The notes: generated by a model from the sequence alone, not told the origin. A DNA stretch of 64,000 nt from Candidatus Woesearchaeota archaeon (GCA_016928835.1 JAFGJW010000007.1:12158-76157), one strand, 5' to 3'; shown: positions 3,033 through 59,364, numbered from the stretch's first letter. Numbers and translations are program-made.

Positions 3033-3410
3033 ATGGAAAATCCAGACAACCTGAAATATACAAAAAAACACGAATGGGTCAAGGTAGAGGGAGATACTGC
3101 TTTATGCGGTGTTACAGACAAGGGTCAGCAGTTGCTGAAGGACATTGTTTTTGTTGAATTACCTTCACCAGGACCTGTTGCAAAAGACCAGCCTATCGGT
3201 TCAGTTGAGTCAGTAAAATCTGTGAGCGATTTCTATGCCCCTGTTTCAGGAGAGATTGTTGAACTGAATAAGGAACTGGAAAACTCGCCAGACTTATTAA
3301 ACAAAGAGCCTTATGGCAGAGGATGGGTTGTGAAAATTAAGCTCACTAATAAAGATGAATTAAATGGATTGATGGATAAAGCTAAATATGAGGAGTTCAT
3401 TAAAGCCTAA
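3033..3410 (+). CDS. gcvH: glycine cleavage system H protein / lipoyl carrier protein
   Basis: 125 aa; lipoyl-lysine motif ESVKSVSD, conserved YTKxHEW N-terminus. Confidence 0.85.
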   Translation: MENPDNLKYTKKHEWVKVEGDTALCGVTDKGQQLLKDIVFVELPSPGPVAKDQPIGSVESVKSVSDFYAPVSGEIVELNKELENSPDLLNKEPYGRGWVVKIKLTNKDELNGLMDKAKYEEFIKA

Positions 3411-5352: not shown

Positions 5353-6792
5353 GTGATTACCATGGAGTATGATTTAAAAAAGATCAATGATTTCCTTTTT
5401 GAAGTTCCTAAACAAGGAGCAATGCAAGTGCCACTTAGAATTTTTGCCTCTGAAAAATTGATCCAGAAGATGAAAGAGGACAATGCAATACAGCAGGGTG
5501 TTAATGTTGCTGCTCTCCCTGGGATAGTAAATGCGTCAATCATGCTGCCAGATGCCCATCAGGGCTATGGTTTCAGCATTGGTGGTGTAGCTGGCTTCAA
5601 ACTTGAGGAAGGTATTATTACTCCTGGTGGAATTGGTTTTGACATAAATTGTGGTATCCGTCTATTATCAACTAGTCTAAAAAAAGAACAGCTGTCTTCC
5701 AAAATTAAGGAACTAATTGAGATTATTTTCAGAAATGTTCCCTCAGGTGTTGGCTCATCCTCAAAAATAAGATTAAGTGATTCTGAATTAAATGCAGTTT
5801 TAGAAAAGGGCTCTAAATGGGCAGTTGCTCACGGCTATGGAATAGAAGAAGATTATGAGCACTGCGAATCTTATGGAAGTTTAGCACCTGCAGATGCTTC
5901 GAAGGTAAGTAACAAGGCAAAAGCCAGGGGCAGAGACCAGCTCGGCACTTTAGGTGCTGGAAATCATTTCCTTGAAATACAGTATGTGGACGAGATTTAC
6001 CAGCCAGAGATAGCTAAAAGATTTGGTATTAATGAGAAGAACCAAATAACTGTAATGATACATTGTGGCTCTCGCGGTTTAGGTCATCAGGTGTGTTCTG
6101 ATTACCTGCGCAAAATGGAGGATACCTATCCAGATATCATGAAAAGACTGCCTGAAAAAGACCTAATCTATGCCCCGTTTAACAGCCAGCTGGGACAGGA
6201 TTACTTTAAAGGGATGAGTGCTGCTGCCAATTATGCATGGGCTAACAGGCATATTATTGCACATTTTGTAAGAGAGTCGTTTAAGCCAATATTTCCAGAT
6301 GCAGAGCTTAAAACTATTTATGATGTGGCACACAATATAGCTAAAATAGAAGAGCATGAAGTGGATGGCAGAAAAGTGAAGCTGATTTTGCATAGGAAAG
6401 GAGCCACTAGAGCATTTCCACCAGGCCACCCAGAGATACCTGATGCTTACAGGGAAGCAGGGCAACCAGTGATAATTCCTGGCAGCATGGGAACTGCTTC
6501 TTATCTCTTGGTAGGCACAAAAGAGGGAATGGAACAGACATTTGGGAGCTCAGCGCATGGCGCTGGCAGAGTTATGAGCAGGCATGCTGCATTGCGGCAA
6601 TTCAGAGGCGAGCATGTGAAGAGCGAGCTTGAGAAAAACAAGATTTATGTCAAGGCGGCATCATGGAAGGGAATAGCAGAAGAAGCCCCTCAAGTATACA
6701 AGGATATAGATGAAGTTATTAGAGCAACAACAAAATCAGGACTAAGCAAGGCAGTTGCAAGATTAAGACCAATGGGTGTGATAAAGGGATAG
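5353..6792 (+). CDS. rtcB: RNA-splicing ligase RtcB
   Basis: Hallmark motifs GAGNHF, HCGSRGLGHQ, SSAHGAGR; length 479 aa. Confidence 0.95.
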   Translation: MITMEYDLKKINDFLFEVPKQGAMQVPLRIFASEKLIQKMKEDNAIQQGVNVAALPGIVNASIMLPDAHQGYGFSIGGVAGFKLEEGIITPGGIGFDINCGIRLLSTSLKKEQLSSKIKELIEIIFRNVPSGVGSSSKIRLSDSELNAVLEKGSKWAVAHGYGIEEDYEHCESYGSLAPADASKVSNKAKARGRDQLGTLGAGNHFLEIQYVDEIYQPEIAKRFGINEKNQITVMIHCGSRGLGHQVCSDYLRKMEDTYPDIMKRLPEKDLIYAPFNSQLGQDYFKGMSAAANYAWANRHIIAHFVRESFKPIFPDAELKTIYDVAHNIAKIEEHEVDGRKVKLILHRKGATRAFPPGHPEIPDAYREAGQPVIIPGSMGTASYLLVGTKEGMEQTFGSSAHGAGRVMSRHAALRQFRGEHVKSELEKNKIYVKAASWKGIAEEAPQVYKDIDEVIRATTKSGLSKAVARLRPMGVIKG

Positions 6793-42473: not shown

Positions 42474-42527
42474 AAAAAAAAATCATGGTTTATACTATAT
42501 AAATTTATTGATTTGCCTTAAGAAGAA

Positions 42528-42622
42528 TGGGCCCGCCCGGATTTTCGCAAATTTTTCCCTCAACTCGAACCGGGGACCTCCGCCTTGTAAGGGCGATGTC
42601 ATAGCCACTAGACCACGAGCCC
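42528..42622 (-). tRNA. tRNA-Val (anticodon TAC) with 22-nt non-canonical intron in the T-loop (42543..42564)
   Basis: Manual fold: acceptor GGGCTCG/CGGGCCC, D-arm, anticodon stem TCGCC/GGCGG with loop CTTACAA, T-stem CCCGG/CCGGG; removing GTTGAGGGAAAAATTTGCGAAA restores canonical TTCGAAT T-loop and 73-nt length; discriminator A, no encoded CCA. Confidence 0.75.
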
Positions 42623-52341: not shown

Positions 52342-53490
52342 ATGGCAAAAAAAGACTATTATGAAATTCTAGGCGTTAGTAGAGATGCTTCCAAAGATGA
52401 GATTAAAAAAGCCTACAAAAAACTGGCATTGAAGTATCACCCTGACAGGCACATGGACACTGACAAGAAGAAAGAGGCTGAAGAAAAGTTTAAAGAAATA
52501 AACGAGGCTGCTTCTGTGCTGGGAGATGATGAGAAAAGAGCACAATATGATCGCTTTGGCACTGCACAGCCAATGGATTTCTCTGGTTTTGATTTCAGCG
52601 ACTTTGGATTCAGGGATTTTGGAGGTGATTTTGATTTTGGTGATATATTTGATATGTTTTTTGGTGGAGGAAGTTTTGGATTTTCTTCCAGAGGAGCAAA
52701 AAGAGCATACCGAGGCTCTAATCTAAGGTTTGATATTTCTTTAAGTCTTGAGGAGGTTGCAGCAGGAGTGGAAAAGACAATCATGCTCCCACAGCTCATC
52801 CAATGCCCTGCATGTAATGGAAAAGGAGCAAAAGATAGTGATGATATTGTAACCTGCGACATATGCAGAGGAACCGGAAGACAGACCACTACCAAGAGGA
52901 CTGTGTTCGGCGTTTTCCAAACAACAACCACCTGTGGAAAATGTAATGGTCAAGGCAAGATAATAGAAAAACCATGCAGCAAATGCAATGGAGAAGGTAT
53001 TGTTAAACAAAGTTCTAAAATAAAGATTAAGATTCCAGCAGGTGTTGAAGAGGGCACACATCTAAGACTTTCTGGCAAAGGTGACGCAGGAATAAGAGGA
53101 GGGCCTCCAGGAGATTTGTATGTTGTGGTACAAATAAAAGAACATGAAATTTTTAGGAGAGAAGCAGCAGACATCTATCTCGAAACACCGATTTCATTTG
53201 TCCAGGCTTCACTGGGCACAACAATAGAAATACCTACATTAGAAGGCAAGGCTAAGCTAAAAATACCTCCAGGCACGCAGACAAATACCATATTTCGATT
53301 AAAGGATAAAGGCGTCCCCTACCTTAATAGGGGCGGCAGAGGGGATGAGAACGTTAGGGTGATAGTTAAGGTGCCTGACAGATTATCTAAAAAACAGAAA
53401 GAGATATTAGAGCAGTTTGCAGAGGCAAGCGGCGAAGACTCTGAACCAAGTGAAAGCTTTTTTAAGAAGATATTTGGCAAGTCGTGGTAA
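52342..53490 (+). CDS. dnaJ: chaperone DnaJ (Hsp40)
   Basis: J-domain [13 protein letters not shown]-rich linker, four CxxCxGxG repeats; start moved to MAKKDYY. Confidence 0.9.
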
Positions 53491-53502
53491 TTCTAAAAGA
53501 AT

Positions 53503-53772
53503 GTGGGGAGGAGGATTTTCACAAACGCCATCCAAGACCAGGGGGCTAAGCAAACGCAGTTTGCGCACGCCGCCTTTCTGGTGTGAACTGACAGATGGCA
53601 GTTCTTTTGAACCCCCGCAGGCATTTCTCCTGAATGAAACTTGATTTCACTTCAGTCTAAGCCAATAGGTGTCTTTCATTCATAGCGTGAAGCTCATCAC
53701 ACCTACGAAGCGACCTAAGCTTGGACATTTACTCCAGAAAATCTATCCCGTTTGGCCACTCCGGCATCCCCA
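53503..53772. ncRNA. GC-rich 270-nt non-coding island with complementary termini (GTGGGGA..GGAG / CTCC..TCCCCAC), candidate structured RNA
   Basis: About 50% GC; 7+4 bp terminal helix closing the element; several internal GGGGG/CCCCC pairings; family not identifiable by eye. Confidence 0.3.
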
Positions 53773-54428
53773 CATTTGAATCGGGAGTTAATTCTCTTGA
53801 GTTTCTCTTTATTTTGTAACGGGAAACTATTTAAAAAGTTATCTATCTCTTTCCGTCTTAAGCGTATTCCATAAAACTCCCGACCATATTTTTTATTAAA
53901 CCAGATTTCAGTTCCATGTGAAACATCCAACTCATTAAGCAAACTGCTAAGGCCAATCTGTAGCTGCTTACTTGCTGTCGTAAAACCTAATGAGTTACCT
54001 CTAAAACCACCATCTGTATCAAAATAACCTGCAATAAAATATCTCTTAATTTTTGATGAGTTATGTCTGATTAAAGAGGGGATAATAACAGCCGAACTCT
54101 TTGATCCTTCAGGGACTTCCATAGTTTTATTTAGGAAATTATACAACGCTTTATTTCTTATATAAATTCTCAATCGAGGTGTTCTATCCCCCTTTTGAAT
54201 TATACTTTTTGGTTTGGTCCTTGTTTTAATAATTGTCTTTATTATTTTATAGATATATAATAAAAATTTTTTATCACTAAGATCTATACTTATTCTATAA
54301 TCCTTTGACAAATCGGTCTTATGTGATTTTGGAGAATTTGACAAATTGCCATCTCCAATAATTACACCAGTTAAATAAGCAGTTTTGACATTAAGATAGA
54401 TTTTTTGAGCTTTTTTTTGATTATTCAT
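53715..54428 (-). CDS. free-standing double-motif LAGLIDADG homing endonuclease
   Basis: 237 aa; motifs LTGVIIGDGNL and IAGYFDTDGGF about 100 aa apart; last about 22 codons run into the GC-rich island. Confidence 0.8.
   Translation of the reverse strand: MNNQKKAQKIYLNVKTAYLTGVIIGDGNLSNSPKSHKTDLSKDYRISIDLSDKKFLLYIYKIIKTIIKTRTKPKSIIQKGDRTPRLRIYIRNKALYNFLNKTMEVPEGSKSSAVIIPSLIRHNSSKIKRYFIAGYFDTDGGFRGNSLGFTTASKQLQIGLSSLLNELDVSHGTEIWFNKKYGREFYGIRLRRKEIDNFLNSFPLQNKEKLKRINSRFKCGDAGVAKRDRFSGVNVQA
53750..53773. repeat. 24-nt direct repeat copy 1 (TTTGGCCACTCCGG|CATCCCCACA)
   Basis: Matches 54644-54657 plus 54702-54711. Confidence 0.7.
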
Positions 54429-54643
54429 TCAAATCACAGCGGGATGATGTAGTCCAAACTATGTAAATAATTTTAATTTAAATATTTCGCGCGCACAAAT
54501 GTCCAGTGAGATGAAGTCGAGCTAGACTAGGAGATTGAATATTTCCAAGGCCCAGTACCGAAAATTATAATTAATAGTTGAAAAAATTGTAAATATGATT
54601 TGAATTTAATTAATAATTACAGGAAAAAACCAAAATTTTTAAT

Positions 54644-54711
54644 CTCACACTTCTTTGGCCACTCCGGACAAACGAAGTTCGTAGGAGCACGAACTCCGGT
54701 TAGTTCTCCGG
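54644..54711. repeat. 24-nt direct repeat copy 2 interrupted by 44-nt palindromic insert (54658..54701) bounded by CTCCGG repeats
   Basis: Insert contains perfect hairpin GTTCGT-AGGAGC-ACGAAC. Confidence 0.7.
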
Positions 54712-54778
54712 CATCCCCACAAACAGTAGTGGAAGAACTCAATCTGTTTTAAATAATTTATTATTTGCCAGTATCACT

Positions 54779-55363
54779 TCACAAGCTCATAATCCTGACA
54801 AAAAATTCTCCAAGATTAATAAAAAGGATAATATTAAAAAACAGCACCACCATTGGCTCAATATATCTCTTATGGGGCAGCAAATTAAGCATGCTGGCGA
54901 TAAAGAATTCTAGAATCGCAAACAAAAAAGAAAAGAGTATGCCTACTACCACAATACTATAGTTACTAAAAAATAATGAGAGGTAACCAAGAAAGATTAT
55001 GGGAATGATGGATATCATGTCTGACACTTCAAATCCTCCAGTTAATAATTCTGCAAGATTTCCTGCAACGAGACAAAAAATCAATGAAGTCTTGAATCCA
55101 TAAGCTCTCACGATGAGAATACTAACAAAAAATAGCAAGTCAATATGCACAGGAAATCTGAATCTATGCAAAAAGTAATCCACAAGCATGATAAGTGCCC
55201 CAAGAAAAAGGAGTATAAATATGTCCTTAAATTTTAATAAAAAAATTATCAAGCCAGAAGCAATTATTACATATTTTATTGGTGTGTTAAGGAATTGTCT
55301 AATTGGCCTGAAAAATGCAGGCTCTCTTTTGCCTCTTTTACGTCTAAAATTATCCATAAACAA
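54779..55363 (-). CDS. hypothetical membrane protein
   Basis: 194 aa, 5-6 TM helices. Confidence 0.4.
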   Translation of the reverse strand: MFMDNFRRKRGKREPAFFRPIRQFLNTPIKYVIIASGLIIFLLKFKDIFILLFLGALIMLVDYFLHRFRFPVHIDLLFFVSILIVRAYGFKTSLIFCLVAGNLAELLTGGFEVSDMISIIPIIFLGYLSLFFSNYSIVVVGILFSFLFAILEFFIASMLNLLPHKRYIEPMVVLFFNIILFINLGEFFVRIMSL

Positions 55364-55428
55364 AGTAAGAAATGATTAGTTAATAATAACTTTATGCCCA
55401 ATCAGCTATATTTCTCTATATACTATTT

Positions 55429-56004
55429 TTATACAGGCAACCAAAGACCTCTTCTTAACCTAAACAAGCTGTCCATATCTCTAAGAATTCTTACCAGCTC
55501 TTCAGGCCTATTGTTTGTATAGACATATACTTCGCTATCTTCTCTATCAAAAGTCTCCATCCGCTCCCATCTTGAATCCACTTCACCAACCACATCGTTT
55601 ATCCTTCTTTTTCTATAATTTCTTTTTCTTAATATATCCTTCTCGACATCAAGACAAATCAAATACTTCTCTGCTACACAACCACCAGTATCAAGCAGCC
55701 ATTCCCTCATCTCATTTGTCTCAGCACAGGAATCAACCACAACATCAAGTCCTTTGCCAAGATTCGATAACTTCATTGAGTGCAGCAACCATAACATGTC
55801 ATTTTCAAGTCTTTCATAATCAGGTCTCTTGCTATAATCACTAAAGTCTAGAACCCCGTAAAGTTCATAACGCAACTGATCCGTACTCACCCATCTAAAT
55901 CCTAATCTGGCAAGATGACTGGCAACTTCAGATTTCCCTGAGCAAGGATATCCACACATCACCACTAGCCGCGGCAGTTCATCATAATTTCTGTGCACAT
56001 ACAT
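55429..56004 (-). CDS. P-loop kinase/ATPase (AAA_33 / zeta-toxin-like fold)
   Basis: Walker A GYPCSGKS; Arg-rich. Confidence 0.55.
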   Translation of the reverse strand: MYVHRNYDELPRLVVMCGYPCSGKSEVASHLARLGFRWVSTDQLRYELYGVLDFSDYSKRPDYERLENDMLWLLHSMKLSNLGKGLDVVVDSCAETNEMREWLLDTGGCVAEKYLICLDVEKDILRKRNYRKRRINDVVGEVDSRWERMETFDREDSEVYVYTNNRPEELVRILRDMDSLFRLRRGLWLPV

Positions 56005-56081
56005 ACGGCTCTGTAGAGATTAGTTATATAAAAGCATTTTTAACAAAATTTATATACTCCCATTATTCAAAGTATCTTACA

Positions 56082-56267
56082 ATGGATAAACAAGAATGGG
56101 AAGCAGAAAGAGACAGAGCATGGAAAAAGATTGAGGACCTGAGAAAAGAGTTTGAAAACAACCACGGAGATGAAGATGCTCTCCATCGGGCAATAGCAGA
56201 TGCGCTGAGCAAGGGATACATTTTAAAAACGCAATTTGGCCTAGTTAAAGCAGAGTACAGAGAATAG
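56082..56267 (+). CDS. small hypothetical protein
   Basis: 61 aa acidic helical ORF divergent from P-loop kinase. Confidence 0.3.
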   Translation: MDKQEWEAERDRAWKKIEDLRKEFENNHGDEDALHRAIADALSKGYILKTQFGLVKAEYRE

Positions 56268-56316
56268 ATAAAATTTAAATATACAACAATTTCTCCTCTG
56301 AATTGGGTGATACAAG

Positions 56317-57123
56317 ATGATAATATTCCCTATTGTATTTTTATTTGTTACAGGAATGATAGTAGCTGGCCTGGTTGTATTAAGCTCTATTAAACAGGCA
56401 AATGAATGGGAGCGTATCCCTATACTAAGGTTGGGAAGATATGTTGGAATGCGGGGCCCGGGTTTATTTTGGAAATGGCCAATTATTGAGCAGATACCAT
56501 TTAGGATTGATTTGAGAATAAAGGTTAGGGAGATTAGAACAGAGGAAAGAACTTTAACCAAGGACAATGTTCCGGTGAATGTAGGCAGCATATTATACGT
56601 ACAGCCGGTAAAACAACATTTAGAAAAATTAATACTTAATATTGATGATTATGAGAACGCAACCATTCTAGCTACACAGACAACACTCAGAGAGACAATC
56701 GGAAAACACACTCTCCAAGAATTGCTTTCAGACAGAGAAAAGGTCGCTGAAGAATTGCAGAAGATTATAGATGAAAAAACAGAGGCATGGGGTGTGAAGG
56801 TTCATTCAGTTGAAATCAGAGAAGTGGAGATTCCATCACAACTACAGGATGCGATTGCGCGAGTAGCTGAAGCAGAAAGGGAGAGGCAATCTAGAGTCAC
56901 TTTAGCACAGGCAGAGGTAGAAGCTGCAGGGAAAATGCTTGAAGCTGCATCAAATTATGACAAATCTCCAAGGGCAATGGAACTTAGATGGATGAACCAA
57001 ATCCATGATATTGGCTTGCATGGAGTCGGCACAGTAATACTCGTACCAACAGATATGCCAATGGCTGGTGTCGGCGGTGTCCTTGGCCTGGAGAAACTAA
57101 GGCCAAAGAGAAAAAGAGAATAG
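56317..57123 (+). CDS. SPFH/band-7 (stomatin/prohibitin-like) membrane protein
   Basis: N-terminal TM, SPFH core, Ala/Glu-rich coiled coil. Confidence 0.85.
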   Translation: MIIFPIVFLFVTGMIVAGLVVLSSIKQANEWERIPILRLGRYVGMRGPGLFWKWPIIEQIPFRIDLRIKVREIRTEERTLTKDNVPVNVGSILYVQPVKQHLEKLILNIDDYENATILATQTTLRETIGKHTLQELLSDREKVAEELQKIIDEKTEAWGVKVHSVEIREVEIPSQLQDAIARVAEAERERQSRVTLAQAEVEAAGKMLEAASNYDKSPRAMELRWMNQIHDIGLHGVGTVILVPTDMPMAGVGGVLGLEKLRPKRKRE

Positions 57124-57248
57124 GCATTATTTATATAGAATAGTACTTAGCTACCTAATTTCTCTGCAAAGTAATTTATCCTGTTATTCTGCGAATAGAA
57201 AAATAGTTTTATATAGTTTGAGAGATTTACATTAGCTGGTGGTAAAAC

Positions 57249-58235
57249 ATGGATCCTCAAATTGATAAATCTGATATGGGCAAAGTTCTGGCAGAGTTTC
57301 CTGAAATGATAAGGGATGCCATGGAGCTCGCAAGAGATATTAACATTGAGGATGATATTGAGAACATATTTATCTGCGGCATGGGAGGCAGCGCTTTCTC
57401 AGGTGATTTACTAAAGTGTTACTTACAGAATTTCAAAATACCTGTCTTTATCAACAAGAATTATTCCTTGCCGAAATATGTTAATAGCAAAACACTGTTA
57501 TTTGCAGTCTCATATTCAGGCAATACAGAAGAGACAATCTCCCAATATAGGGAGGGAATCAGAAGAAAGGCAAAGATTGTCTCTATATCCTCAGGGGGCA
57601 AGCTCAAAGAACTGGCCGCAATGAACAAGAACCCCCACGTCCTGGTCCCTAAGGGCATCCAGCCCAGGCTGTCAACACCATTTTTATTTGTTCCTATGCT
57701 AACGGTCTTGCAGAATATCAAATTGATTCCTAATCAGAAAAAGCTGCTGCTGGATTCCATTGACGCGTTAGAAAATCCAATTATCAAGGACAGGGCCCAG
57801 GAGTTAGCATCAAAAATCAAAAACAAGATTCCGATCATTTACTCCTCAGACAGAATCTATTGTATTGCAGAAAAATGGAAATGCGATATTAATGAAAATG
57901 CAAAAACACCTGCTTTCTACAATCTGTTCCCAGAATTTAACCACAACGAAATAAACGGATATGTCAATCTGGTTGGAACTTATTTTGCTATTCTTATCAG
58001 GGACTTAGACGACCATGAGAGGGTCAAGAAAAGAATCGGCATAATCAAAAAACTAATACTCTCCAAAGGTGTTGAGGTTACAGAGATAGCAATTACTGGA
58101 AACAGTTATTTAATTAGACTATTATCAGGCATATATATGGGTCTATGGGTTTCCTATCACCTTGCTCTTGAGTACAATGTAGATCCTACCCCTGTCGAGA
58201 TAATAGAGGACTTAAAAAAGGAGTTAGCGAGGTAA
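57249..58235 (+). CDS. SIS-domain bifunctional phosphoglucose/phosphomannose isomerase
   Basis: ICGMGGSAFSGDLL and VSYSGNTEET. Confidence 0.8.
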   Translation: MDPQIDKSDMGKVLAEFPEMIRDAMELARDINIEDDIENIFICGMGGSAFSGDLLKCYLQNFKIPVFINKNYSLPKYVNSKTLLFAVSYSGNTEETISQYREGIRRKAKIVSISSGGKLKELAAMNKNPHVLVPKGIQPRLSTPFLFVPMLTVLQNIKLIPNQKKLLLDSIDALENPIIKDRAQELASKIKNKIPIIYSSDRIYCIAEKWKCDINENAKTPAFYNLFPEFNHNEINGYVNLVGTYFAILIRDLDDHERVKKRIGIIKKLILSKGVEVTEIAITGNSYLIRLLSGIYMGLWVSYHLALEYNVDPTPVEIIEDLKKELAR

Positions 58236-58293
58236 AACGTAAGATTTAAATATATGAATAATAATCAAAATACTAGCCAGTTACTATTTTTTC

Positions 58294-58701
58294 GTGGAGG
58301 TTAAAATGAAAAAATTTTTTGACAAAGTAAAAGACAGGATTAAAAAATTCAGTTTTGATGATGAGATTTCTAATGGTCACGGTGAATATTTGGAGCTTGA
58401 TACTACAAGACAGCATGACAAGGCTTCAAAAGTGGTTGTGAGACCGTTTGTTATTGAGGATTTTTCTGATATCAAAGCCATACTTGATTCTATGAGAGGA
58501 GGGTACACAGTGGGGCTAGTAAACATTCGTCCTCTTAAGGATAAGGACTTAGTGGAACTCAAGAGAGCAATTAACAAGCTAAAAAAGACCTGCGAAGCTG
58601 TTGATGGAGATATTGCGGGATTCGGCGATGATTATTTGGTCATTGTACCCAGTTTTGCAGAGATTTACAGAGAAAAAGCCAAGGAAGAACCTGAAGAATA
58701 G
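58294..58701 (+). CDS. sepF: cell division protein SepF
   Basis: 135 aa; DUF552 core VVVRPFVIEDFSDIKAILDSMRGGYTVGLVNI...DYLVIVP. Confidence 0.75.
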   Translation: MEVKMKKFFDKVKDRIKKFSFDDEISNGHGEYLELDTTRQHDKASKVVVRPFVIEDFSDIKAILDSMRGGYTVGLVNIRPLKDKDLVELKRAINKLKKTCEAVDGDIAGFGDDYLVIVPSFAEIYREKAKEEPEE

Positions 58702-58766
58702 ACATTAGTTACTCTAATTATATTTATCAAAACATTAATATACTAATTTTCAAACTAATAAGTGTC

Positions 58767-59159
58767 ATGGACATTAACAAAATTCAGAAACTTAACAAAT
58801 TAGCTGTTGACTTAAAAAAGCATAATATTGTTGATTCTAAGGAAGAAGCCATTAAACAAGCTGAAAATGTTGTTGGAGCCAAGCATGATGACTTTAGTAC
58901 AAAAGAACCTGACAGAATGCGTGAAATTGAGAAGGAAATTCGAAAGATTGGGTTTGAAGTAAGAGAGCAACAGCAAAAAATCTCTGACATAGTAAAAACA
59001 CTGAATGAAGTCTTAGAACAACTTCATAATTCAAAGCTAAATATTAGACCAAAAGAAAAGATTTCAGCTAAAAAAGATCCCACAAAGCCCATAGACAGAA
59101 ATAAAGTGGCTCCTTCTGAGGTCTCTATTGAGAAATATTTTTATTTTGGGAAGAAATAG
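58767..59159 (+). CDS. hypothetical coiled-coil protein
   Basis: 130 aa, Lys/Glu-rich. Confidence 0.35.
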   Translation: MDINKIQKLNKLAVDLKKHNIVDSKEEAIKQAENVVGAKHDDFSTKEPDRMREIEKEIRKIGFEVREQQQKISDIVKTLNEVLEQLHNSKLNIRPKEKISAKKDPTKPIDRNKVAPSEVSIEKYFYFGKK

Positions 59160-59364
59160 ATCCCTTATACTTTTTCACAAGATCCTGCCATTCTATCACT
59201 CTTTCCTCGGCCTTTAAAGCTGTTCTAATAAGTACCGCATTCCTTTCCTCAAGCTCATCAATGCGTTTATCCTTTCTCTCTAATTCCTTATAGAGGGTTT
59301 CAATAATTATTTTAGGAGATTTCCTGCCTATCTTAGATGGAGAATGCTTTTTGCCTTTTTCCAT
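59125..59364 (-). CDS. hypothetical small protein
   Basis: 79 aa, basic N-terminus then coiled coil. Confidence 0.3.
   Translation of the reverse strand: MEKGKKHSPSKIGRKSPKIIIETLYKELERKDKRIDELEERNAVLIRTALKAEERVIEWQDLVKKYKGSISSQNKNISQ

Follow-up and report, generated by a model that had tools for sequence, protein, structure and literature searches.

What is the GC-rich, RNA-like island that lies against a free-standing homing-endonuclease gene in the genome of a Candidatus Woesearchaeota (DPANN) archaeon, and how do the two come to be joined? The locus lies in a 64-kb stretch of the genome, referred to here as the window, and its features are read on the minus strand: a LAGLIDADG homing-endonuclease gene (HEG), the island, and a 24-nt sequence repeated on the two sides of the HEG. 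Sequence comparison with relatives shows this to be a composite locus, in which the island is a predicted transfer RNA (tRNA) gene, tRNA-Leu(UAG), split by four introns of the bulge-helix-bulge (BHB) kind, with a free-standing HEG cassette lodged inside its 5' part. The explanation that best fits the locus overall, and which we regard as probable, is that the enzyme would cut intron-less alleles of the tRNA gene, that an intron would shield the carrier allele, and that homing would spread the two together.

The island spans 272 nt (53502..53773), with a GC content of 0.45–0.485 against 0.25–0.39 in its flanks; its ends pair (GUGGGGA with UCCCCAC), and its folding beats that of 200/200 shuffled sequences (z = -2.96). 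The first-pass annotation had seen a 270-nt, roughly 50% GC block with pairing ends and suggested the folding check that is borne out here, so that its island is real once the length, boundaries and GC content are corrected, but it took the end helix for that of a structured RNA of the RNase P or signal recognition particle (SRP) type, whereas the helix is a tRNA acceptor stem. The Rfam comparison that it proposed gives nothing in the island: a scan of the whole window at gathering thresholds places no family there, and of the three chance-level hits that cmscan reports for both strands of 53300–54900 at E <= 10, not one lies in the island or is to a tRNA, RNase P or SRP model. ARAGORN, run on the genomic sequence in default and intron modes, calls no tRNA in the window either, the island included. 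The gene escapes these standard models because four introns interrupt it.

Its identity is given by the contigs of four homologous endonucleases, which were retrieved and searched with nhmmer; in all four (4/4) the first 35–40 nt of the island are found right where the endonuclease gene ends. Read out, these four loci contain a class-II tRNA whose anticodon loop is CUUAGG and which has between one and three inserts. In relatives the tRNA gene measures 114–160 nt, and ARAGORN pushes the intron into the anticodon loop and miscalls the genes as Pro or Arg. Alignment of the window to the homologous loci delimits five exons (84 nt in total) and four introns (188 nt in total), and the exons, when spliced in silico, form an 84-nt RNA that ARAGORN identifies as tRNA-Leu(UAG) with a perfect cloverleaf. 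Every stem is paired: the acceptor stem has 7 bp and the D stem 3 bp, the D loop and the variable arm are both long, the loop of the T arm is UUCAAAU, and the discriminator base is A. The spliced sequence matches at 84/84 positions that of locus L119, from an independent Woesearchaeote, which carries no endonuclease and whose introns differ in sequence, length and number; three sites are common to the two genes and the variable arm of L119 is uninterrupted. Intron-less tRNA-Leu(UAG) genes with the window's exon sequence (..GGCCAAACGGGATAGGCTTAGGACCTAT..) are present at L043 and L076. A review of 2014 gives at most three introns for each archaeal tRNA gene (PMC4033280), a maximum that the window gene, with four, surpasses.

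The four predicted introns have 3-nt flanking bulges and central helices with 4/4, 3/4, 3/4 (the relaxed form) and 4/4 pairs, respectively. Exon 1 (53743..53773) contains the acceptor 5' strand, the D arm and the anticodon-stem 5' strand to position 30, and is followed at the non-canonical position 30/31 by the 22-nt intron 1 (53721..53742), whose BHB motif has the central helix GGAU/GUCC and bulges AG/A and AA/G. Exon 2 (53714..53720, GCUUAGG) comprises position 31 and the anticodon loop to position 37, after which the 43-nt intron 2 (53671..53713) occupies the canonical 37/38 position; this intron is seen in L001, L024 and L119 and is missing in L002, L004 and L006. Exon 3 (53657..53670) provides the 3' strand of the anticodon stem and begins the variable arm, of which it holds the first half; in the loop of that arm lies the 33-nt intron 3 (53624..53656), with an inner helix of 5 bp. 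Intron 3 is not found in any relative examined, L119 and all others having an unbroken GGCTTAGTGCC there. Exon 4 (53606..53623) holds the second half of the variable arm, the T-stem 5' strand and the T loop to position 59, and the 90-nt intron 4 (53516..53605) is at 59/60, with the central helix UUCA/UGAA and with the 5-bp T stem as its outer helix. Boundaries giving an 89-nt intron 4 were rejected, as the T loop would then have 8 nt and the BHB motif would be poor; with the 90-nt intron the loop has 7 nt and the central helix 4/4 pairs. The same 59/60 site is interrupted by shorter introns in L001, L034, L035, L056 and L119. Exon 5 (53502..53515) supplies U60, the T-stem and acceptor 3' strands and the discriminator, CCA not being encoded, and directly after the discriminator base is the T-rich run UUCUUUU (53495..53501), likely an archaeal terminator by prediction, with the same T-run in all relatives.

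The HEG (53715..54428) encodes 237 aa, and its earlier description as a free-standing, double-motif LAGLIDADG gene outside any intein or ribosomal RNA (rRNA) intron is upheld by Pfam (PF14528 LAGLIDADG_3, 50 bits, cutoff 22.5; PF05204, 21.2 bits, cutoff 21.1) and by the motifs LTGVIIGDGNL and IAGYFDTDGGF. The catalytic acidic residues D26 and D139 (GDG, DxDGG) are invariant in an alignment of 20 diverse family members. AlphaFold2 confidently predicts two alpha-beta-beta-alpha-beta-beta-alpha halves (pLDDT 87.4, pTM 0.85), the solved structures closest to the model by Foldseek are I-DmoI (E = 1e-9, target-normalised TM 0.75–0.80; an I-DmoI-like fold), the endonuclease domains of the archaeal inteins TliVMA and PI-PfuI, and I-Tsp061I, and a profile comparison to I-DmoI gives E = 4e-8. 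The modelled protein is a monomeric, double-motif, I-DmoI-like LAGLIDADG homing endonuclease for which cleavage is predicted.

The gene adjoins the tRNA without a prior stop of its own. The tRNA start coincides with codon 219 of the open reading frame (ORF), 19 sense codons and a stop are read into the RNA (the first-pass annotation had noticed this overrun, at about 22 codons), and the stop codon UAG (53717–53715) is the tRNA anticodon. The fold comprises residues 1–218, where the last predicted helix ends, and residues 219–237 are translated from the tRNA and intron 1, residues 221–237 forming a disordered tail with pLDDT below 50. Because the C-terminal tails in the family translate the D arm in all three frames (CGDAGVAKR, GVPERSNG and RRCRSGQT), the tail is read-through and not selected protein.

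Upstream of the HEG there is a TATA-like box, AAATATTTAAAT (54476..54487), 48 nt before the ATG and at a position conserved in relatives, which is presumed from its sequence to be the gene's own promoter. The conserved motif CACTGGACA (54500..54508) lies ~10–12 nt upstream of that box and is found upstream of the HEG in the window, L002, L004, L006, L131 and L151; among the HEG-less loci of the D-arm scan described below it occurs in L092 only, at -1256. It is conceivable as a candidate operator for autoregulation, and we note that it loosely resembles tRNA positions 21–30 (AAACGGGACAG). Near the other end of the gene, the invariant F198-L199-N is encoded by TTTTTAAAT (~53823–53831), which is also a TATA-like box 49 nt before the tRNA +1; this box occurs at the same distance in 10/48 HEG-linked loci, and it may be an internal tRNA promoter or a mere consequence of AT-rich codon usage.

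The direct repeat shows how the cassette is placed. The 24-mer TTTGGCCACTCCGGCATCCCCACA is present at 53751–53774 and again at 54654–54667 plus 54706–54721, the second copy being interrupted by 44 nt with CTCCGG repeated at the ends, and each half of the 24-mer is found exactly twice in the window, against an expectation of 0.01–0.03. The start-to-start distances are 903 and 947 nt; the repeat had been recognized in the first-pass annotation, with the first copy displaced by 1 nt, the second by 10 nt and a spacing of 870. It was right, too, to attach the repeat to a mobile unit, but an alternative suggestion, that the repeat is the exon duplication of an intron, falls away, since the 24 nt are by alignment tRNA positions -1 to +23, that is, a tRNA 5' segment flanking the HEG cassette. 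Copy A (53751..53774; -1 to +23 in linear count) is the 5' end of the working tRNA and contains ORF codons 218–226. Copy B consists of a 5' part (54706..54721; -1 to +15), the 44-nt insert at tRNA position 15/16 (54662..54705), and a 3' part (54654..54661; +16 to +23) that ends in GGCCAAA.

The 44-nt insert itself fits a BHB intron, with the central helix CCGG/CCGG (4/4 pairs), bulges AG/A and AG/U and a rod-like inner hairpin. It had been described as either a mini-intron or an insertion resembling a miniature inverted-repeat transposable element; the former fits, and the latter was rejected, there being no second copy in the window (allowing <= 3 mismatches) or in 127 loci. The apparent CTCCGG target duplication largely follows from the BHB rule, because the exon CCGG is palindromic and has to be matched by a pairing sequence at the end of the intron. 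An assembly artefact is excluded because an independent Logan assembly (SRR13394437) matches the whole structure, with 100% identity over window positions 59357..53744, a stretch that spans both repeat copies, the insert and the ORF; the endonuclease protein also has a 100% match in NCBI.

A box TATTTAAA (54748..54755) lies 27 nt upstream of the copy B +1, resembles the boxes at the upstream copies of relatives, and is presumed, on its sequence and position, to be the original tRNA promoter. The upstream 5' copy is kept in 9 of ~46 distinct HEG-bearing loci, five of which (the window included) end exactly at +23, and each has a TTTTTAAAG-type box 24–27 nt before +1 (24–25 nt in L131, L157, L137, L162, L163, L160 and L128). 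A box 23–26 nt before +1 is present in 35/65 HEG-less Leu genes, and at that position in just 1/48 HEG-proximal tRNAs. Because the box position matches that of HEG-less Leu genes, copy B is the start of the original tRNA gene, with its presumed promoter, and the cassette (spacer, HEG and fresh tRNA positions 1–23) lies inside the tRNA gene. The order along the minus strand is promoter box, copy B, a spacer of 225 nt that holds another promoter-like box, HEG, and complete tRNA-Leu(UAG). The HEG is the only ORF with a family match in the 879-nt insert between the repeats, where no recombinase was found. Copy B is decayed, deleted or cut to 10–15 nt in most lineages, and in every case a complete tRNA follows the HEG. 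In L146, a scrambled GCTTAGCGGCTAAACGGGACAGGCTTTAATG follows the upstream tRNA copy (positions 1–23), ~199–165 nt upstream of the HEG ATG, and includes the intron-less 30/31 junction (ACAG/GCTT); the scrambled sequence looks like the scar of a repair event involving a recipient gene without the 30/31 intron.

The association of this endonuclease with tRNA-Leu(UAG) is characteristic of its family. A metagenome scan using the endonuclease alignment gave 80 loci, and a genome scan using the D-arm sequence, a pattern that leaves out tRNA-Leu genes interrupted at 15/16, gave 120. At least 76 proteins of ~230 aa, all free-standing, belong to the family, whose ~60 loci are in Woese-, Pace- and Nanoarchaeota; there the gene nearly always lies against tRNA-Leu(UAG), with read-through into the D arm. 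The same layout, nearly always with an intron at 30/31, is present at ~55 distinct loci in the three DPANN phyla. Among metagenome HEGs with at least 36% identity and enough flanking sequence, tRNA-Leu(UAG) is directly adjacent with the sole exception of L177. In species-representative genomes the HEG is found at 4/36 (~11%) tRNA-Leu(UAG) genes and at 0/75 genes for other Leu isoacceptors with an identical D arm (p = 0.01). The predicted target includes the anticodon region, because the HEG is restricted to UAG genes despite the identical D arms.

Filled and empty sites can be compared in synteny, with an LSM gene, an L37e-like gene and then tRNA-Leu in HEG-bearing L004 and in HEG-free L040 and L080. 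Most of the ~50 family ORFs are intact and nearly all keep both LAGLIDADG motifs; L024 is frameshifted, and a few others (e.g. L181 and L185) are frameshifted or truncated. This mix of intact, broken, filled and empty alleles is what a selfish homing gene shows in the ordinary course of its life cycle. The empty sites that the first-pass annotation proposed to seek are thus available among the relatives L040 and L080 of L004, but not in the window's own neighbourhood: the DnaJ, 194-aa membrane protein, AAA_33 kinase, ADH-like and Band_7 genes are without a syntenic match among the fetched loci, and an exact-sequence look-up of the window endonuclease, seeking an empty site, returned no record. 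The sole relative found for the membrane protein (51% identity, in L208) sits in another neighbourhood. Upstream of the intron-containing, HEG-free alleles L034, L040, L050, L080 and L119, a search for HEG remnants showed ordinary tRNA promoters only. More distant LAGLIDADG relatives (24–29% identity) also lie at tRNA genes: L190–L197 abut a tRNA-Thr(GGU)-like gene, L207 adjoins a tRNA-Val-like gene with an insert, and L187, L205 and L206 adjoin a tRNA on the opposite strand. From these positions, this endonuclease clade may more widely tend to lodge beside tRNA genes.

The HEG is also associated with one particular intron. The 30/31 intron is present in 49/54 distinct HEG-bearing tRNA-Leu(UAG) genes and in 6/29 HEG-free ones (odds ratio 38, p = 1.5e-10), and 52/54 HEG-bearing genes have an intron at either 30/31 or 37/38. 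The 30/31 introns end in ...(G/A)TCCAA, often have the inner helix TAATTCT...AGAATTA, and form a family common to the HEG-bearing loci and the HEG-free locus L040. Introns just before the anticodon loop are also seen in Leu(UAA) and Leu(CAA) genes from these archaeal groups (L009, L014, L107 and L118; L051, L074, L091, L123 and L125), which often have a 37/38 intron too and have no endonuclease nearby.

These observations can be accommodated as follows. The putative enzyme would cut intron-less tRNA-Leu(UAG) somewhere in the region from the D stem to the anticodon arm, and repair of the break from the carrier allele would copy the cassette into the recipient. Since a substitute for the 5' tRNA segment comes with the cassette, the insertion would be harmless with no need for a self-splicing element; the sequence upstream of copy A would either become a trimmed 5' leader or be bypassed by an internal promoter, and the introns would be removed by the host splicing endonuclease and RtcB. 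The neighbouring intron, at 30/31 or in a few loci 37/38, would break the rebuilt recognition sequence and so protect the carrier. During repair, a recipient 5' end that paired with copy A would acquire the intron alone, and one that paired with copy B the intron and the HEG; alleles with the intron and without the HEG are explicable because pairing with copy A would transfer the intron by itself. The HEG would in this way be a DNA-level vehicle for a BHB intron. A narrower claim is that, in cellular tRNA genes of archaea, a LAGLIDADG HEG and a BHB intron spliced by the host are mobile as a cooperating pair; we put this forward tentatively, as somewhat less than an even prospect.

Several findings weigh against this explanation. 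A strict rule, by which the 30/31 intron equals immunity or always accompanies the HEG, is contradicted by L071, L144, L165, L176 and L179: L144, L165 and L179 have an intact HEG with a 37/38 intron only, L071 has an intact HEG and neither intron, and L176 has no intron and a HEG ORF truncated by the contig end. In the species-representative genome sample alone the 30/31 intron is found in 3/4 HEG-bearing and 6/29 HEG-free genes (p = 0.05), and the association statistics as a whole take no account of shared ancestry, which inflates them. Introns at 30/31 are also present in tRNA-Leu(CAA) and tRNA-Leu(UAA) genes, none with a HEG; 30/31 is a general intron hot-spot in the clade. Most HEG-bearing loci are without an upstream copy, which is hence dispensable for maintenance. 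The last 19 codons of the ORF that would have to be translated for a full-length protein lie within the pre-tRNA, and there may be a second, intact tRNA-Leu(UAG) gene in the genome beyond the visible 64 kb.

The main rival to a protective intron is classical homing with a passenger intron, which we consider unlikely, though by far the strongest of the alternatives. The target would be the enzyme's own insertion site (the 5' boundary or 23/24), destroyed by the insertion, and the 30/31 intron would be non-protective and co-converted since it lies within 30–60 nt of the HEG. Co-conversion of flanking markers is general in homing, the upstream copies share a recurrent +23 end, intact HEGs occur beside tRNAs without the 30/31 intron, and HEG-bearing loci and L040 have introns of one family; however, copy A followed by position 24 onward rebuilds the D arm and would restore a 23/24 site unless it were broken downstream, a site at the leader/+1 boundary would be half in the unconserved AT-rich leader and fits ill with three phyla and varied neighbourhoods, and none of the 75 genes for other Leu isoacceptors has the HEG, although they share this D arm. 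In both readings the HEG carries a BHB intron at the DNA level. A different role, in which the protein has ceased to be a selfish nuclease and has been domesticated, for instance to regulate tRNA-Leu(UAG) or to help in its maturation, and shares an operon-like transcript with the tRNA, would suit the strict and ancient pairing with one tRNA and the conserved motif CACTGGACA, and LAGLIDADG maturases and WhiA-type regulators are known and appear among the fold-search matches. Such maturases and WhiA-type proteins commonly lose the catalytic acidic residues, both of which are invariant here, and BHB splicing requires no maturase; with a HEG in merely ~11% of tRNA-Leu(UAG) genes of species representatives, syntenic filled and empty sites, and frameshifted and truncated copies, we find domestication improbable.

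The remaining alternatives concern the nature of the insert and of the island. If copy B were exon 1, the segment from 54653 to 53751 would be a giant, HEG-bearing BHB intron in the D loop, as archaeal rRNA BHB introns do encode LAGLIDADG enzymes (I-DmoI, I-Tsp061I) and the palindrome GGCC in both copies could make a 4-bp central helix; but a hand check could draw no outer and inner helices beyond that palindrome, splicing would be superfluous given copy A, and copy B is decayed, short or absent in most relatives with the downstream tRNA always complete, which makes this highly improbable. A tRNA 5' fragment, an insert and a complete tRNA are likewise the signature of an integrative element, and the same layout at the Caldiarchaeum tRNA-Thr(GGU) gene contains a 1.8-kb recombinase element (PMC3293823), yet a duplicated attachment (att) site of an integrase-type element or plasmid remnant with a LAGLIDADG gene by chance would hardly leave a HEG and no recombinase in 879 nt, nor the same minimal cassette in dozens of genomes, and it deserves almost no credence. 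We give equally negligible weight to the island as another structured RNA, of RNase P or SRP type, closed by its end helix: the pairing of the ends and the better-than-shuffled folding are what such an RNA would show, but RNaseP_arch, RNaseP-T and Archaea_SRP are unmatched in the island at E <= 10, the exons splice to a perfect tRNA-Leu(UAG) and are 100% conserved in L119 where the intervening segments are not, and the gene in relatives is merely 114–160 nt long. Readings of RNase P elements (CR-I, CR-V) and SRP helix 8 were checked by eye and dropped given this 114–160-nt tRNA.

For the protective intron of the favored explanation there is a precedent in the "collaborative homing" of F-CphI and the psbA intron (PMC6083498). 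In both, a free-standing endonuclease gene adjoins a target gene that contains an intron, the proposal is that self-cleavage is blocked by the intron and that the endonuclease mobilises it, and the two are statistically coupled. They differ in that F-CphI/psbA combines a self-splicing group I intron, a phage protein gene and an Endo VII-type enzyme, whereas the window has a host-spliced BHB intron, a cellular archaeal tRNA gene and a LAGLIDADG enzyme, with the cassette inside the target gene and offset by a duplicated 5' segment, and with cleavage and immunity both predicted. I-DmoI, I-Tsp061I and I-PorI, which are encoded in rRNA BHB introns, share with the window enzyme the monomeric double-LAGLIDADG fold and an archaeal host, and BHB splicing keeps the host RNA functional in either case. 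Their genes are within the intron and are removed on splicing, unlike the window HEG, which is outside all four introns and upstream of the mature RNA, has its own promoter-like boxes, and overlaps the 5' half of the tRNA.

A tRNA locus reminiscent of this one is that of Caldiarchaeum subterraneum tRNA-Thr(GGU), in which a 5' fragment, a 1.8-kb recombinase element and a tRNA copy with an extra intron are found, and for which a coupling of mobile-element insertion and intron gain was proposed (Sugahara et al. 2012, PMC3293823). The order of tRNA 5' fragment, mobile insert and complete tRNA with a gained intron is the same; the Caldiarchaeum cargo, from one population, is a repeated element of 1.8 kb with a DNA recombinase, in contrast to a 0.88-kb cassette with a homing endonuclease only, in three DPANN phyla and at one isoacceptor. 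Multi-intron tRNA genes are described from Thermoproteales and other archaea (Sugahara 2007, 2008; Fujishima 2010; reviewed in PMC4033280 and PMC4090602), and these too have non-canonical BHB introns (30/31, variable region, 59/60) beside the canonical 37/38 intron, with related introns common to several genes; the window gene differs in having four introns and not three, a DPANN host, and a linked DNA endonuclease, of which no report was found in the literature searched. The seg and mob genes of phage T4 are free-standing endonuclease genes that home without introns (PMC2790892, PMC2988022); like the window HEG they lie by conserved genes, and spread is by break repair with co-conversion of flanks, but they are phage GIY-YIG or HNH genes, with no tRNA-segment duplication and no host-spliced intron. 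A full-text literature search turned up no account of a DPANN tRNA-Leu gene with a LAGLIDADG gene inside it.

Elsewhere in the window, a Pfam scan covered RtcB and ten further ORFs. The RtcB tRNA-splicing ligase gene (5353–6792, plus strand) scores 579 bits to PF01139, and RtcB is the ligase that seals BHB exons; its presence, and the locus as a whole, agree with the earlier view that active mobile genetics operates here, which now extends from the RNA to the DNA level. A tRNA-Val(UAC) gene (42527–42622, minus strand) has a 22-nt insert in its T loop (CCCGGTTCGA[GTTGAGGGAAAAATTTGCGAAA]ATCCGGGCGGGCCCA), scores 25.6 bits in Rfam, below the gathering score of 29, and is missed by ARAGORN; it is probably the "intron-containing tRNA" mentioned in the first-pass annotation. 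In L208, from a related Woesearchaeote, a tRNA-like gene at ~3150–3370 (GCCCCGTAGTGTAGCGGTCAAAAC...GGTTCGAAC...) apparently has several long inserts, and heavily interrupted tRNA genes seem common in the Woesearchaeote group.

There are practical consequences for annotation in these archaea, in that four introns hide the tRNA from Rfam and ARAGORN, genomes of the group will seem to be without tRNA-Leu(UAG), and endonuclease annotations will include a spurious tail that is tRNA sequence. More broadly, a review describes how BHB introns reach new positions and genes as "still unknown" (PMC4090602), and an idea of Randau and Soll, cited in PMC4090602 and PMC4033280, is that tRNA introns guard tRNA genes against mobile elements. 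This locus and the ~55 like it combine, in one physical unit, a DNA endonuclease of predicted site specificity with a duplicated segment of the tRNA and with one particular intron at a non-canonical position, and the HEG–tRNA linkage suggests a possible DNA-level route for the spread of archaeal tRNA introns. With filled, empty and intron-only alleles all in public data, both ideas about introns are directly testable, and the locus is of interest to those who study archaeal tRNA introns and those who study homing endonucleases. If the HEG and the intron do form a cooperative pair, the endonuclease message would be a disposable 5' leader, the intron would spread with or without the HEG, and the pair would be the first concrete mechanism, at the DNA level, by which archaeal tRNA introns are gained and spread. 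It would also add to self-splicing introns and inteins a third means for a HEG to reside harmlessly in an essential gene.

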